This document shows positions 663 through 5,566 of a DNA stretch of 5,921 nt, piece by piece. This DNA comes from a virus (lineage: Duplodnaviria > Heunggongvirae > Uroviricota > Caudoviricetes), in the IMG/VR virus record IMGVR_UViG_2778261064_000011; one strand, written 5' to 3'. Position numbers and translations under genes: made by a program. The first letter of the stretch is position 1; every line of letters begins with the position of its first letter. The notes under the pieces are model-generated. The model had not been told where the DNA came from. It did no database searches and saw only the letters and a program-made list of their open reading frames with translations.

Positions 663-1334
663 TCAGCGACCAATCACCACAACCTGACCACCGTCCCCTT
701 CGTCTGCCGTGCTGATCTCCTGAGAAACCACCCGCGACCCCACACGCATTTCACCGTACAGAACAGGCAAAACATTGCCCTGAGCAACCATGTTATCCAG
801 TGAGGAAAAATAGGTGTTCTGTTTGCCGTTATCCGTTGTCTGTGTACGGGGAGTTCTGGCTTTCGGTGCCAGCATCTGCGCCACACCACCGAGCACCATA
901 CTGGCACCGAGAGAAAACAGGATGCCGGTCATACCACCGGCCCCAATGGCTGCCCCCCATGCTGCAAGGGTGGCTCCGGCAGTAAAGAATGATCCGGCAA
1001 TGGCGGCAGCTCCCAGGACAATCTGGAATACACCACCTGACTTGGCCCCGGCGACTCTGGGAACAATATGAATCACAGCGCCATCAGGCAGAGTCTCATG
1101 TAACTGCGCCGTTAATCCGGACGTGCTGACATCCCGCCCGGCAATCCGTACCTGATACCAGCCGTCGCTCAGTTTCTGACGAAACGCCGGGAGCTGTGTG
1201 GCCAGCGCCCGGATAGCTTCAGCCCCCGTTTTCACACGAAGATCGATGCGGCGGCCAAATCGTTGCAAATCCCCGTAAAGGCAGATGCGTGCCATGCCCG
1301 GTGACGCCAGAGGGAGTGTGTGCGTCGCTGCCAT
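663..1334 (-). CDS. I: Tail tip assembly protein I (223 aa), ubiquitin-like N-terminal region and hydrophobic Gly/Ala-rich C-terminal half
   Basis: Complete ORF in track (MAATHTLPLASPGMARICLYGDLQRF...VVVIGR) with TGA stop at 665..663. Recognised as lambda gpI. Same strand and order as lambda. Start lies 103 nt inside K in a different frame. Confidence 0.92.
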   Translation of the reverse strand: MAATHTLPLASPGMARICLYGDLQRFGRRIDLRVKTGAEAIRALATQLPAFRQKLSDGWYQVRIAGRDVSTSGLTAQLHETLPDGAVIHIVPRVAGAKSGGVFQIVLGAAAIAGSFFTAGATLAAWGAAIGAGGMTGILFSLGASMVLGGVAQMLAPKARTPRTQTTDNGKQNTYFSSLDNMVAQGNVLPVLYGEMRVGSRVVSQEISTADEGDGGQVVVIGR

Positions 1335-1975
1335 TTGTCGGTATACCTCTCTCGTTTGCTCAGTTGTTCAGGAATATGGTGCAGCAGCTCGCCATCACCA
1401 CAGTAAATGGCGGCATGATTCGGCACCGATGAACCAAAACAGCACAGCAGCACATCGCCCGGTTGTGCTGATGACAACGGCACCTGATACAGCCCTGTGG
1501 CCTCCAGATTATCCAGATAGAGATTCTGACCGTGACGCCACCAGTCATCCTCGCGATGAAAATCCGGCATCTCAATCCCCGCCAGATGATAAGCATCCCG
1601 GAACAGCGTGTAACAGTCCGTCACCCCGTGCTCAAAGCGCCGCCCGGTGAGATGCGGCACACAGCGGAACTTATGAATCGTCCCCCGGCAGACCAGCCAC
1701 CACGGCAAATCACTCTGCACCTGCAGCCGCCGGTCGGCCTCACTCAGCCAGGGCAGACCACCGGGGTGGCTGTGGACCAGCGCCACAATCTCACCCTGCA
1801 TTTCTGCCTGCAGCCAGTCTTCCGGCGACATACGGAAATACGCCTCCGGCTCACCGGAGATATTCACGCAGGGGAAATATCTTTCCCCCTCCGGCGTGCT
1901 TACCACGAAGCCGCACGACTCCGCTGGCGCACATCGCCGGGCGTGCGCCAGAATCGCTGATTCTGCCTGTGTCAT
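1232..1975 (-). CDS. K: Tail tip assembly protein K (247-aa ORF), N-terminal JAB/MPN metalloprotease-like region plus C-terminal NlpC/P60-like cysteine peptidase region
   Basis: ORF MTQAESAILAHARRCAPAESCGFVV...HSHPGGLPWLSEAD... contains the JAMM signature H-x-H-x7-S-x2-D (HSHPGGLPWLSEAD) with an upstream Glu candidate (PAESCG), and a downstream Cys/His pair (GVTDCYTLF ... HAAIY) typical of NlpC/P60. ATG at 1975 lies 5 nt after the L stop with no Shine-Dalgarno, consistent with translational coupling. An alternative internal start (ATG at 1831, MSPEDW..., 199 aa) is preceded by GGAGG and matches the classical 199-aa lambda K length as I recall it. Confidence 0.88.
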   Translation of the reverse strand: MTQAESAILAHARRCAPAESCGFVVSTPEGERYFPCVNISGEPEAYFRMSPEDWLQAEMQGEIVALVHSHPGGLPWLSEADRRLQVQSDLPWWLVCRGTIHKFRCVPHLTGRRFEHGVTDCYTLFRDAYHLAGIEMPDFHREDDWWRHGQNLYLDNLEATGLYQVPLSSAQPGDVLLCCFGSSVPNHAAIYCGDGELLHHIPEQLSKRERYTDKWQRRTHSLWRHRAWHASAFTGICNDLAAASIFV

Positions 1976-1980
1976 GGGAT

Positions 1981-2679
1981 TTACTGCGAAAGTTTGTTAA
2001 TGGAAAGGAAGCCGCCAAAGTTGCCGACGTTATTGCGGAACTTACAACCGCTCAGGCATTTGCTGCATTTATCCTTCGTGATATCGGACGTTGGCTGGTC
2101 ATATTCATCCGCGACCGCCGGACCGTGATAACCGCACTCATCGCCGCGATAGGTCCAGGTGCAGGTGTTGGCCAGCATGATACGTCCCGGAAAAACAGCG
2201 CCGTCCGTTTCCGTCGGCGTGGACAGTACAAAAGAGGCACTCACCGCGCTCAGTTCGCTGCACTGCTCAATGCGCCAACGGCTGATCACCTCCTGCTCCG
2301 GATCGGCGTCACTGTTTCCGTTGACGAAGTTCACCGCATCCAGAAAACGGGCGTAAACCTTACGCCGGACCACCGTTCCGCCGACCAGACTCTGCAGATC
2401 TTCCGCCATCCCGGTGACCATACCGTACAGGTTAGAAACCGTCAGCGTGGGGCGCGTACTGGTGCCTTTGCCATTCAGTTCAAAACCACTCCCCTGAATG
2501 GGATACGGCTGATACTGTCGCCCCTGCCAGGTGACCGGCTCACCTTTTTCGTTCTGCTCATTACAGAAAAAATAACGTTCTCCACCGACCTCTGTCAGGT
2601 CGATTTCCCAGAGCACCACGCTGGCCGACTGCTCCGCACGGGTGCATTCATTCAGTGTTTCCTGCCGGATATCCTGCAT
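1981..2679 (-). CDS. L: Tail tip protein L (232 aa) with C-terminal cysteine cluster (putative iron-sulfur site)
   Basis: Complete ORF in track (MQDIRQETLNECTRAEQSASVVLWEIDLTEVGGERYFFCNEQ...). Recognised as lambda gpL. C-terminus carries clustered cysteines (...ANTCTWTYRGDECGYHG...KDKCSKCLSGCKF...). ATG at 2679 overlaps the M stop by 1 nt (minus strand TGATG). Confidence 0.93.
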   Translation of the reverse strand: MQDIRQETLNECTRAEQSASVVLWEIDLTEVGGERYFFCNEQNEKGEPVTWQGRQYQPYPIQGSGFELNGKGTSTRPTLTVSNLYGMVTGMAEDLQSLVGGTVVRRKVYARFLDAVNFVNGNSDADPEQEVISRWRIEQCSELSAVSASFVLSTPTETDGAVFPGRIMLANTCTWTYRGDECGYHGPAVADEYDQPTSDITKDKCSKCLSGCKFRNNVGNFGGFLSINKLSQ

Positions 2680-3008
2680 CAGTTCACCACCTGTTCAAAC
2701 TCTGCGCTGAACTCAACACGCAGCATACTGACCCGCGACGACCATTTTGCGCAGGTCACCTTTATCTGCCGCCACTCATAAGGCGGCGTCCACAGAAAGG
2801 CTTTCCAGCCCCCGTGCTCTTCCAGAAACGACTCCAGTACCGTGGCCTCCTCACGGGGGACAGAAAGCGTCACGCTGTACGTTTTCAGGTTGGCATTCAG
2901 CCCGGCAGGCGCTCGCTGGGAATAGCCATCACCAAAGCGCACCTTTCTTACAGAAGGGGCCGAAGCCACATCCATACCGGGTTTCACTTTCCAGCGGAAG
3001 GTTTTCAT
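2679..3008 (-). CDS. M: Tail tip protein M (109 aa)
   Basis: Complete ORF in track (MKTFRWKVKPGMDVASAPSVRKVRFGDGYSQRAPAGLNANLKTYSVTLSVPREEATVLESFLEEHGGWKAFLWTPPYEWRQIKVTCAKWSSRVSMLRVEFSAEFEQVVN). Recognised as lambda gpM. GGAGG Shine-Dalgarno at 3019..3015, 6 nt before the ATG. The ATG overlaps the H stop by 4 nt. Confidence 0.93.
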   Translation of the reverse strand: MKTFRWKVKPGMDVASAPSVRKVRFGDGYSQRAPAGLNANLKTYSVTLSVPREEATVLESFLEEHGGWKAFLWTPPYEWRQIKVTCAKWSSRVSMLRVEFSAEFEQVVN

Positions 3009-5566
3009 CGTCCACCTCCGGAGAACAGACCACCATCACGCATCTGCCCGGTCACAACATCCATTGCCGCCTTACGGGCTACGTCATAAACAGCCTTCAG
3101 CGCCTGTGGCCCTATCTGACCGTTCGTGCCGTCGTTGTTAATCACCACATGGTTATTCTGCTCAAACGTCCCGGACGCCTGCGACCGACTGTCCGCCATG
3201 CTGCCCGGTGTACCGACATAACCGCCGGTGGCATAGCCGCGCATCAGCCGGTAAAGATTCCCCACGCCAATCCGGCTGGTTGCCTCCTTGGTGAAGACAA
3301 ATTCACCACGGTGAACAATCCCCGCTGGCTCATATTTGCCGCCGGTTCCCGTAAATCCTCCGGTCGCAAAATGGAGTTTCGCCGCAGCTGCCTGAATGGC
3401 TGTACCGCCTGACGCTGATGCGCCACCACTGGCAGCACCGCCAATGGCGCTGCCGATACTCCCGACAATCCCCACCATTGCCTGCTTAAGCAGAATTTCT
3501 GTCATCATGGACAGCACGGAACGGGTGAAGCTGCGCCAGTTCTGTTCACTGCCGGTCAGCATCGCCGCCATATTCTGTGCAATACCATCAAAGGTCTGCG
3601 TGGCTGCACTTTTAACCTGCGACATACTGTCCGTGGCGCTCTCTTCCCACTCACTCCAGCCTGACCTGAGGCCTGCCATCCAGCTCCCACGAAGCTGGTC
3701 TTCAGCCGCCCAGGTCTTTTTCTGCTCTGACATGACGCTATTCAGCGCCAGCGGATTATCGCCATACTGTTCCTTCAGGCGCTGTTCCGTGGCGTCCCGC
3801 GCTGCCTGCCGGTCAGTCAGCCCCCGGTTTTTCGCATCAATGGCTGCCCGTTTTGCCCGTTGTTGCTGTGCGAATTTATCCGCCTGCTGCGCCAGCGCAT
3901 TCAGGTGCTCCTGATACGTGACCTTATCGCCAAGTGCAGCCAGCTGGCGTTTGTACTCCAGCGTCTCGTCTTTATGCGCCAGCAGGGATTTCTCCTGTGC
4001 GGACAGCTGGCGACGTTGTGCCGCCTCCTCCAGTACCGCGAACTGACTTTCTGCCTTCCACAAATCCCGGCGCTGCTGGCTGATTTTCTCATTCGCTCCG
4101 GCATGCTTCTCCAGTGTCCGGAGTTCTGCCTGAAGCGTCAGCAGGGCAGCATGAGCACTGTCTTCCTGACGATCGCCCGCAGACACCTTCACGCCGGACT
4201 GTTTCGGCTTTTTCAGCGTCGCTTCATAATCCTTTTTCGCCGCCGCCATCAGCGTGTTGTAATCTGCCTGCAGGATTTTCCCGTCTTTCAGTGCCTTGTT
4301 CAGTTCTTCCTGACGGGCGGTATATTTCTCCAGCGGCGTCTGCAGCCGTTCGTAAGCCTTCTGCGCCTCTTCGGTATATTTCAGCCGTGACGCTTCGGTA
4401 TCGCTCTGCTGCTGCGCATTTTTGTCCTGTTGACTCTGCTGTTCAGCCTTCTTTCGGGCGGCTTCAAGCGCAAGACGGGCCTTTTCACGATCATCCCAGT
4501 AACGCGCCCGCGCTTCATCGTTAACAAAATAATCATCCTTGCGCAGATTCCAGATGTCGTCCGCTTTCTTAAACGCAGCCTCTGCCTTAATCAGCATCTC
4601 CTGAGCGGTATCAGGACGACCAATATCCAGCACCGCATCCCACATGGATTTGAATGCCCGTGCTGTCCTGTCTGCCCAGGTTTCCAGCGTGCCCATGTTC
4701 TCTTTCAAGCGTCGGGTCTGGTCATCAAACCCTTTCGTTGCGGCCTCGTTCGCCGCCTGCAATGCCCCGGCTTCATCGCCGGAACGCTGCAACTGAGCAA
4801 CATACGCAATCTGCTCCGCCGTCACGTTATGGAACTGGCGCGCCATCGCCGTCAGCCCCGACGTCGGGTCAGTGGTCAGCTTCCCGAAGGCTTCAGCGAC
4901 CTTGTCCACCTCCACACCGGATGCAGAGGAGAAACGCGCCACACTCTGGCTGATGGACGCAATCTGAGCCTCACCGCTTACCCCCGCCTTAACCAGTGCA
5001 CTGAGTGACTCGCTGGTCTGGTTAAACGTCAGCCCTGCAGCCTGCCCGGCTCTGGACAGGACCAGCATACGATCTGCCGTCAGTCCCGCCTGATTACCGG
5101 AAAGGACCAGCGTTTTGTTGAAATCGGACAGGGTTGAGTTACCCTGATACCAGGCATACGCCAGCGCACCGGTCGCCACCGCCAGCGAGGTGGCCCCGAC
5201 CATCGGCAGGGTGATCGCACCGGCAAGCCCCCGGAACATGGGGATCATCCCGCCGAAGGAGTCCTTAACCTGACCACCCTGTTGCAGCAGGATCAGCCAC
5301 GGGCTTTGCCCGCCTGCAAGCTGCGTGGCCACGTCGGTGAACTGTGCAGGCAGCATACGCATGGCGGCTTTATACTGCCCGACGGAAATCCCCGCTTTCT
5401 GTGCAGCCAGCGCCTGTCGGCTCAGCGACTGTTCAACGACTGCCGCTGTTTTTTTCGCATCACTTTCCGTACCGGAAAAATGACGCCTGACTCTGGCCAT
5501 CTGCTCGTCAAATCTGGCCGCATCCAGACTTAAATCAACGACCAGATCGCCTACCGGTTCAGCCAT
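3005..5566 (-). CDS. H: Tail tape measure protein H (853 aa)
   Basis: Single 2562-nt ORF. Translation (MAEPVGDLVVDLSLDAARFDEQMARVRRHF...) recognised as lambda gpH. N-terminal-proximal hydrophobic segment (GLAGAITLPMVGATSLAVATGALAYAWY), long central Ala/Gln/Lys/Glu/Arg-rich coiled-coil-like region, Gly-rich hydrophobic C-terminal segment (GIVGSIGSAIGGAASGGASASGG). Strong Shine-Dalgarno AGGAGGA 7 nt upstream. ATG overlaps T stop by 8 nt. Confidence 0.95.
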   Translation of the reverse strand: MAEPVGDLVVDLSLDAARFDEQMARVRRHFSGTESDAKKTAAVVEQSLSRQALAAQKAGISVGQYKAAMRMLPAQFTDVATQLAGGQSPWLILLQQGGQVKDSFGGMIPMFRGLAGAITLPMVGATSLAVATGALAYAWYQGNSTLSDFNKTLVLSGNQAGLTADRMLVLSRAGQAAGLTFNQTSESLSALVKAGVSGEAQIASISQSVARFSSASGVEVDKVAEAFGKLTTDPTSGLTAMARQFHNVTAEQIAYVAQLQRSGDEAGALQAANEAATKGFDDQTRRLKENMGTLETWADRTARAFKSMWDAVLDIGRPDTAQEMLIKAEAAFKKADDIWNLRKDDYFVNDEARARYWDDREKARLALEAARKKAEQQSQQDKNAQQQSDTEASRLKYTEEAQKAYERLQTPLEKYTARQEELNKALKDGKILQADYNTLMAAAKKDYEATLKKPKQSGVKVSAGDRQEDSAHAALLTLQAELRTLEKHAGANEKISQQRRDLWKAESQFAVLEEAAQRRQLSAQEKSLLAHKDETLEYKRQLAALGDKVTYQEHLNALAQQADKFAQQQRAKRAAIDAKNRGLTDRQAARDATEQRLKEQYGDNPLALNSVMSEQKKTWAAEDQLRGSWMAGLRSGWSEWEESATDSMSQVKSAATQTFDGIAQNMAAMLTGSEQNWRSFTRSVLSMMTEILLKQAMVGIVGSIGSAIGGAASGGASASGGTAIQAAAAKLHFATGGFTGTGGKYEPAGIVHRGEFVFTKEATSRIGVGNLYRLMRGYATGGYVGTPGSMADSRSQASGTFEQNNHVVINNDGTNGQIGPQALKAVYDVARKAAMDVVTGQMRDGGLFSGGGR
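3015..3019 (-). promoter_or_regulatory. Shine-Dalgarno (GGAGG) for M, embedded in the 3' end of H
   Basis: Minus strand reads GGAGG at 3019..3015, then 6-nt spacer, then ATG at 3008. Confidence 0.5.

Follow-up and report, generated by a model that had tools for sequence, protein, structure and literature searches.

A 247-residue reading of tail tip gene K in a lambdoid phage sequence and the likely single-base origin of its 199-residue annotation in lambda

Gene K lies on the minus strand of a 5,921-nucleotide (nt) stretch of tailed-phage DNA, the window, which was taken from the IMG/VR virus record IMGVR_UViG_2778261064_000011. It encodes the counterpart of gpK, the tail tip assembly protein of phage lambda: the gene sits between homologues of L and I, and its product agrees at 240 of 247 residues with lambda K once a G is restored to the lambda reference sequence. 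We find that translation of K very probably begins at the ATG at 1975 and yields a tail-assembly protein of 247 residues (calculated mass 28.2 kDa) with a JAB/MPN and an NlpC/P60 domain, and that the 199-residue form (23.0 kDa) traces to the G missing from the reference; the case is built on sequence comparison and a structure model. The JAB plus NlpC/P60 architecture of K has been published since 2003-2006, and the 247-residue form is already the standard annotation in RefSeq prophages. What the present analysis adds is that the long form is the conserved gene, that the short start is not conserved, and that the short annotation can be followed back to one missing reference base. The parts of K on which the argument depends are as follows.

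1232-1975, minus strand: full coding sequence of K, 247 residues, with the TGA stop at 1232-1234
1973-1975, minus strand: start ATG (Met1), the proposed true start and the first start after an in-frame stop
1832-1972, minus strand: codons 2-48, absent from the 199-residue form; they code for one helix (3-15) and two strands (21-27, 30-36) of the JAB fold
1829-1831, minus strand: internal ATG (Met49, codon 49), the historical start of the 199-residue form
1843-1847, minus strand: GGAGG within the Pro44-Glu45-Ala46 codons (part of Glu-Pro-Glu-Ala), 11 nt upstream of ATG49
1841, minus strand: G that the lambda reference J02459/NC_001416 lacks; in reference numbering it would fall between 14266 and 14267
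1661-1975, minus strand: predicted JAB/MPN (Prok-JAB) domain, residues ~1-105 (Pfam residues 3-104, PDB profile 3-103, Foldseek)
1919-1921, minus strand: codon of Glu19, putative catalytic Glu of the JAMM motif, in P17-A-E19-S-C21-G22 (conservation and 2KKS/2KCQ alignment)
1733-1774, minus strand: HSHPGGLPWLSEAD, residues 68-81, putative zinc-ligand part of the JAMM motif (conservation)
1304-1645, minus strand: NlpC/P60 (C40) peptidase domain, residues 111-224 (Pfam PF00877)
1613-1615, 1415-1417 and 1379-1381, minus strand: NlpC/P60 catalytic residues C121, H187 and H199, respectively (conservation)

The JAB/MPN domain and selection on the upstream 48 codons

In a profile search that had been proposed in a first-pass annotation of this DNA, made from the sequence alone, only the 247-residue form gave a full JAB match. 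It scored 52.4 bits against the Pfam Prok-JAB profile (PF14464, cut-off 25) over profile positions 3-112 of 114, whereas the 199-residue form reached a sub-threshold 23.3 bits and aligned with positions 63-112 only. The 48-residue extension by itself matched profile positions 3-41. A similarity to the NCBIfam desampylase family, covering residues 3-103, was likewise seen only with the long form; because its score of 30 bits is far under the equivalog cut-off of 130, K should not be called a desampylase. The profile of K homologues could also be aligned with the solved Prok-JAB structures 2KKS and 2KCQ from position 3 to about position 103, including their PNEACG and PEEGCG motifs.

The same picture emerged from an AlphaFold2 model of K built with 62 diverse homologues (predicted local distance difference test score, pLDDT, 97; predicted template modelling score, pTM, 0.91). 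The first domain of the model contains a helix at residues 3-15 and strands at residues 21-27, 30-36 and 62-69, so that the N-terminal helix and the strands of the central sheet that characterize the MPN fold are both there. The best match of the model among PDB entries in Foldseek was JAMM1 of P. furiosus (5LD9/5LDA), followed by NlpC/P60 proteins of the MepS/Spr type, Rpn11, CSN5 and AMSH; LytE was also among the matches. The claim that the upstream Glu (PAESCG, residue 19) and the N-terminal strands are encoded only in the longer form was borne out by the coordinates, by Pfam and by the model, and the JAB motif HSHPGGLPWLSEAD was located, as had been stated, downstream of both starts. Judged from the model, translation from residue 49 would give a protein without the catalytic Glu, helix 1 and strands 1-2, leaving an incomplete JAB remnant of about 57 residues.

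To place these residues in a wider family, we scanned 1.84 billion representative sequences with HMMER, which returned 1,744 relatives of K at E <= 1e-10. Among the best 150, which were inspected, those of at most 61% identity are about 228-271 residues long and nearly all of them align from query residue 19 or earlier. We then aligned 62 homologues of 32-59% identity with K, giving an alignment of 63 sequences. K has the complete JAMM motif E-x(n)-H-S/T-H-x7-S-x2-D, formed by E19, H68, S69, H70, S78 and D81, and its residues are 95-100% conserved in the alignment: H68, H70 and D81 are invariant, S69 and S78 are each present in 60 of the 63 sequences, and E19 is present in 62. Other residues of the upstream segment are similarly constrained, with G22 and N38 invariant and F47, C21 and P17 found in 62, 59 and 58 of the 63 sequences, respectively. 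The second domain matches PF00877 with 49.2 bits (cut-off 23) over residues 111-224, and its catalytic set is equally well preserved (C121 and H187 in 62/63, H199 in 63/63). On this sequence evidence, K is a two-domain protein in which the JAMM and NlpC/P60 catalytic sets are both conserved, and its N-terminal domain is predicted to be a complete JAB/MPN (JAMM) zinc-metallopeptidase domain.

Selection on the upstream 48 codons, a further test named in the first-pass annotation, was examined at the DNA level. The K loci in IMG/VR are 96-100% identical and give little power for comparing nonsynonymous with synonymous substitution rates (dN/dS, omega), and in homologues at 45-50% identity dS is saturated; the informative comparisons came from E. 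albertii and Citrobacter. Relative to E. albertii, 12 changes in codons 2-48 are synonymous and 4 are not (omega 0.09, binomial p = 4e-5), and relative to two Citrobacter homologues omega is ~0.36-0.38 with p about 0.015-0.02. Among 82 close sequences, the variable sites in codons 2-48 are distributed over the three codon positions as 11/7/29 (chi-square p = 1.6e-4), the same pattern as in the rest of K (49/27/115). Codons 2-48 are thus clearly under constraint by these substitution patterns, somewhat less than the rest of K, and the expected purifying selection was found with omega values of 0.09-0.38 in the informative comparisons. A long open reading frame arising as chance read-through was considered and was rejected in view of the motif conservation together with the codon-position pattern. 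Neither of the two outcomes that the first-pass annotation had named as refuting it, a JAB profile fitting wholly within the 199-residue form and a lack of purifying selection upstream, was observed. There is strong support for the long form as the functional protein in the completeness of the JAB domain, in selection, and in the near-invariant Glu in its P.E.CG context.

The one-base difference from the lambda reference

The lambda reference entries J02459, NC_001416 and NP_040598 give K 199 residues, whereas the reading frame in the window is intact at 247. In the alignment, the window, lambda imm21 and phage 434 share GGAGGCGTATTTCC, for which NC_001416 has GGAGGC-TATTTCC; over a wider stretch, NC_001416 and J02459 read GGAGGC-TATTTCCGTATG, and the window, the resequenced lambda imm21 and phage 434 read GGAGGCGTATTTCCGTATG. 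The missing G lies 11 nt upstream of the internal ATG and puts codons 1-45 into another frame. The reference ATG at 14133 therefore opens only a 76-residue orphan reading frame, and adding the G yields the 247-residue K. The first-pass annotation had treated the classical 199-residue product as a matter of start choice; the internal start it pointed to is real as a feature of the sequence, but the 199-residue gene did not come from a choice within one reading frame. It arose because the missing G breaks the long frame in the reference of 1982.

The G-less version is confined to few records. Among 122 phage records that match the stretch, it occurs only in J02459, NC_001416, OR474059 and OR974322, and the others listed are one base longer. 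The records with the G include the independently sequenced lambda genomes LC730321 (48,503 bp), KT232076 and PV340536, as well as DE3, HK629/HK630 and lambda hybrids. Across the full 2,201-base stretch of NC_001416, eleven lambda contigs align with zero mismatches and a single gap, which is the extra G; nine of these are in unrelated bacterial assemblies (Neobacillus, Pseudomonas, Shewanella, Bradyrhizobium and others) and two in IMG/VR. This gap is also the only one in seven further, shorter contigs that come from unrelated assemblies. The stretch is present in 3,927 of 5,426 complete E. coli genomes, and the G-less version was the best match for none of the 3,944 matching records. From these records we conclude that the 199-residue K stems from a single base left out of the 1982 lambda sequence, with a reading error much the most likely cause.

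We considered whether the lambda cI857 S7 stock used for the 1982 sequence could instead truly have lacked the G through a private mutation, with internal initiation keeping the phage viable. This would concern the origin of the annotation only, and we consider it improbable. Since K is essential and that phage was nonetheless viable, a real deletion would mean that a 199-residue product sufficed, which would also favour the production of two isoforms, and the later records OR474059 and OR974322 likewise lack the G. These two records, however, look reference-derived: OR974322 is a 'lambda' from chicken cloacal swabs with the reference gene coordinates, and OR474059 is unannotated. The eleven lambda contigs, moreover, are identical to NC_001416 over the 2,201 bases save for the G; nine of them are stray contigs, with a coverage of ~1x to 10x for the seven whose record names state it. 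A search of the literature found no explicit statement that lambda K has 247 residues or that the sequence errs at position 14266; Feiss et al. 2022 come nearest, with a report of nine differences from the original lambda sequence that are common to many laboratory lambda strains (PMC9119081), which also speaks against a mutation private to the sequenced stock.

The stray contigs are an observation in their own right. Many unrelated assemblies carry near-pure lambda contigs, among them Neobacillus, Pseudoxanthomonas, Shewanella, Bradyrhizobium, Enterococcus, Streptomyces/Kitasatospora and Vibrio, and the coverages given in record names mostly lie near 1x and do not exceed about 10x. They presumably represent laboratory or spike-in contamination, plausibly from commercial lambda DNA, and are used here as independent resequencings of lambda.

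With the origin of the annotation in view, the classical reading can be weighed, in which K has 199 residues from the ATG at 1831 and the upstream 144 nt are an untranslated spacer or a separate small reading frame. It is what J02459/NC_001416 and lambda imm21 (OM418625, with an annotated ribosome-binding site) state, and structural reviews still give 199 residues, a 2020 review treating K as 'residues 52-182 out of 199' (PMC7291167). The upstream 48 codons, however, hold near-invariant residues of the catalytic motif and show coding-type substitutions in the frame of K; Pfam, the PDB profile and AlphaFold2 all put them inside the JAB domain; and the sequence on which the classical gene was drawn lacks a base found in all the independent lambda and prophage sequences examined. 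The comparative data effectively refute the classical reading, to which we attach next to no probability.

Current annotation is mixed. RefSeq prophages carry K as a coding sequence of 744 nt beginning 5 nt past L, and the 247-residue, 744-nt gene is also annotated in phage 434 (OL657226) and in lambda PV340536. In one 2022 submission, the same intact reading frame was annotated as a 199-residue K with a ribosome-binding site in lambda imm21 (OM418625) and as a 247-residue K in phage 434 (OL657226), there with a note on the start that opens 'This start has'. The PHROGs family phrog_7305, of 'unknown function', has 76 positions and matches K residues 1-76; its length is that of the 76-residue orphan frame (reference 14133-14363, window equivalent 1745-1975), and the family was apparently assembled from K genes that are frameshifted or split.

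The L/K junction and the internal ATG

The open reading frames of the window form a minus-strand tail-tip module of the lambda type, H, M, L, K and I. The DNA of the K region is 97.3% identical to phage lambda over 1 kb and 99.0% identical to mEp460_4F5, the closest phage record, and an identical K protein is encoded by an IMG/VR contig. By its sequence, the window is from a lambdoid phage or prophage distinct from lambda itself. The features around K are as follows.

3005-5566, minus strand: H, tape-measure protein, 853 residues
2679-3008, minus strand: M (Pfam Phage_min_tail)
1981-2679, minus strand: L (Pfam Phage_tail_L)
1976-1983, minus strand: L stop TAA (1981-1983) and 5-nt spacer ATCCC (1976-1980), putative termination-reinitiation junction
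663-1334, minus strand: I (Pfam Lambda_tail_I), with the classical start
1232-1334, minus strand: overlap of the K 3' end with I from its classical start, 103 nt (open reading frame list and codon-position variability)

The long frame had been described as opening at the ATG at 1975, 5 nt past the L stop and with no Shine-Dalgarno (SD) site; the TAA, the ATCCC spacer and the ATG were all located as described. An earlier start of K is precluded because an in-frame stop sits 8 codons upstream of the ATG. Anti-SD pairing was sought within 25 nt of the K ATG and none was found (best free energy, dG, 0.0), whereas the starts of H, M and L have SD sites of -10.3, -10.8 and -7.2 kcal/mol at a spacing of 4-7 nt. 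The start itself is well preserved: an ATG occupies the aligned Met1 position in 91 of 94 unique homologous sequences, and the N-termini of the distant, full-length homologues (32-59% identity) mostly lie 0-7 residues from Met1. The L/K junction is preserved as well. Among close relatives the spacer between L and K is 4, 5 or 10 nt long, and these lengths, not being multiples of three, fit a non-coding gap between the two genes. In homologues of Enterobacter, Erwinia, Rahnella, Hafnia, Pantoea and related genera (45-50% identity), the stop of the L homologue overlaps the K ATG as TGATG.

This arrangement continues that of the neighbouring genes. In the window, H and M overlap as ATGA (3005-3008), M and L overlap as TGATG (2679), and L and K are separated by the 5-nt gap, so that the chain of close or overlapping stop and start codons is unbroken across the tail-tip genes, with K alone lacking an SD among these starts. 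From its sequence, the passage from L to K therefore appears to be a further link in a chain of coupled genes. Termination-reinitiation occurs in bacteria. Because the K start lacks an SD, reinitiation after L is most likely the way in which K is initiated, as we infer from the anatomy of the junction and general knowledge: ribosomes finishing L would reinitiate 5 nt further on at the K ATG and would produce K at a low level, an output that would suit a low-abundance assembly factor not seen in the virion. Some chromosomal copies of K are degraded, as in E. coli ECMA0423 and Shigella flexneri SFBU1023, where the reading frames are frameshifted or truncated and the lambda-like L/K junction is retained; these are probably decaying prophages.

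The internal ATG at 1831 is indeed preceded by GGAGG, as had been noted, with a spacer of 11 nt and a pairing energy of -9.5 kcal/mol. The coincidence of the two is not rare and not striking alone: GGAGG occurs 16 times on the same strand of the 5.9-kb window, and an SD-like site of equal strength lies within 25 nt upstream of 8.9% of the internal codons of K. Comparison with relatives of K separates the two elements. Codon 49 is ATG in 82 of the 94 unique DNA sequences, all from close relatives (at least 74% protein identity), and ATC, ATA, ATT or CTG in the remaining 12; at residue 49, 41 of the distant homologues have Ile, 10 Met, 8 Leu and 2 Val, the behaviour of what appears to be a hydrophobic core position. 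K of E. albertii (87% identity) has ATC at codon 49 and keeps GGAGG, whereas the Citrobacter K genes keep ATG49 and have CCGACC in place of GGAGG. Co-conservation of ATG49 with GGAGG across diverged homologues, as dual initiation would predict, was not found in the 94 unique sequences or the distant proteins. GGAGG as a conserved internal ribosome-binding site was accordingly rejected: the Pro-Glu-Ala codons (CCG GAG GCG) spell it out, and in diverged relatives it occurs apart from the ATG. Because the position of Met49 is a hydrophobic one and GGAGG is set by these codons, the internal ATG and its GGAGG are most probably there by chance.

Several observations nevertheless weigh against an exclusively long K. 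The long start has no SD, while the internal ATG has a GGAGG whose 11-nt spacing is long but usable, and the ATG49/GGAGG pair is kept in all relatives of at least 91% identity, though divergence there is too low to be informative. A few representatives are short, such as P0251 (202 residues, aligned from residue 47), and the homologues in our alignment were picked as full-length, which biases the statistics for the N-terminus. Gene callers are also split over identical DNA, with about 51,000 member sequences in 247-residue clusters and about 11,000 in 199-residue clusters among the top 120 clusters.

The first two of these points are also the grounds for a reading in which one frame yields two isoforms, an L-coupled 247-residue protein with both domains and an SD-driven 199-residue form from Met49 that would effectively be NlpC/P60 only. 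Nested or dual-start genes are an established theme in lambda, where C/Nu3 and S105/S107 provide nested products elsewhere in the genome. We nonetheless give this reading, the second branch left open in the first-pass annotation, a rather small probability. It is without comparative support: position 49 is mostly Ile among distant homologues, the E. albertii and Citrobacter genes show that the two elements are not co-conserved, the GGAGG is accounted for by the Pro-Glu-Ala codons and has equals before many internal codons, and the product would retain the incomplete JAB remnant described above. A narrower version, in which ATG49/GGAGG is a recently evolved functional second start in the lambda-proper clade only and the isoform ratio would tune the processing of tail-tip proteins such as gpI, seems to us slighter still. 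Translation of K as the single 247-residue protein remains the reading we prefer.

Relation of K to gpI and to known peptidases

A role for the complete JAB domain has been proposed before. Lambda K was already among the JAMM-motif proteins in Ambroggio et al. 2004 (PMC300881), and Iyer, Burroughs and Aravind 2006 described the lambda tail assembly protein K (TAPK) as JAB plus NlpC/P60 and gpI as ubiquitin-like, proposing that the JAB domain cuts at the C-terminal Gly of the ubiquitin-like domain and so frees this domain from gpI (PMC1779556). gpK is needed for tail assembly, yet it was undetected by mass spectrometry of the virion (PMC10721106) and unresolved in cryo-electron microscopy (PMC12617516). 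We infer that K, made at a low level, would act enzymatically during tip assembly, and, following the published proposal, its JAB domain may release the ubiquitin-like N-terminal domain of gpI. In the gpI of the window, the Lambda_tail_I domain covers residues 14-97 and ends in the Gly-rich segment ...VPRVAG96-AKSGG101 (G96, G100 and G101). In cryo-electron microscopy of the tail, gpI becomes visible only at residue 101 (PMC11101478) or residue 135 (PMC10721106), and the virion mass-spectrometry table S2 lists one gpI peptide, whose position is not given (PMC10721106). The truncation of gpI in the structures is consistent with JAB cleavage; disorder would explain it equally well.

K shares with lambda gpK the H-M-L-K-I gene order, the residue identity given above and the published two-domain architecture. 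With the JAB/JAMM peptidases that act on ubiquitin-like proteins (JAMM1 5LD9/5LDA with SAMP2, the Haloferax desampylase, 2KKS/2KCQ), K shares the E-x(n)-H-S-H-x7-S-x2-D motif, the P.E.CG motif and the fold, and the gene directly downstream of K encodes a ubiquitin-like beta-grasp protein, gpI; unlike in these peptidases, the K domain is fused to NlpC/P60 and belongs to a phage tail module. The second domain has the fold and the Cys-His-His catalytic residues of NlpC/P60 endopeptidases such as E. coli MepS/Spr and B. subtilis LytE/CwlO, but a peptidoglycan-cleaving role during infection is doubtful because gpK was undetected in the virion (PMC10721106) and the K sequence has no obvious export signal. 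The target of the NlpC/P60 domain may be a tail protein instead.

Lambda is the reference siphophage, and structural papers of 2023-2026 still call the location and role of its gpK unknown, alone among the essential tail-tip assembly proteins. Work on K derived from the reference, perhaps including two-hybrid clones, HHpred analyses at '199 residues' and expression constructs, starts without the first 48 residues and hence without the catalytic Glu, and the use of this truncated K could explain negative or odd results. With a 247-residue gene and a single-base origin of the 199-residue form, the 2006 hypothesis of gpI processing becomes properly testable. The finding is a correction of the record, mostly embodied already in automated prophage annotation, and involves no new kind of biology; it should be useful for cloning and modelling lambda K.

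The start of gene I, which lies within the 3' end of K, is itself ambiguous. Candidates are the ATG at 1332-1334, which is the classical start and gives 223 residues, the ATG at 1293-1295, and the GTG at 1233-1235. RefSeq annotation by PGAP calls a 190-residue I from the GTG, which overlaps the K stop as GTGA; since the Lambda_tail_I domain begins at residue 14, this start would truncate it. Counted by codon position, variable sites are 5/2/8 in the frame of K over I codons 1-13 and 6/9/6 over I codons 14-34. These small counts suggest that codons 1-13 are unconstrained in the frame of I and that codons 14-34 are constrained, a pattern that hints at Met14 as the real start of I.

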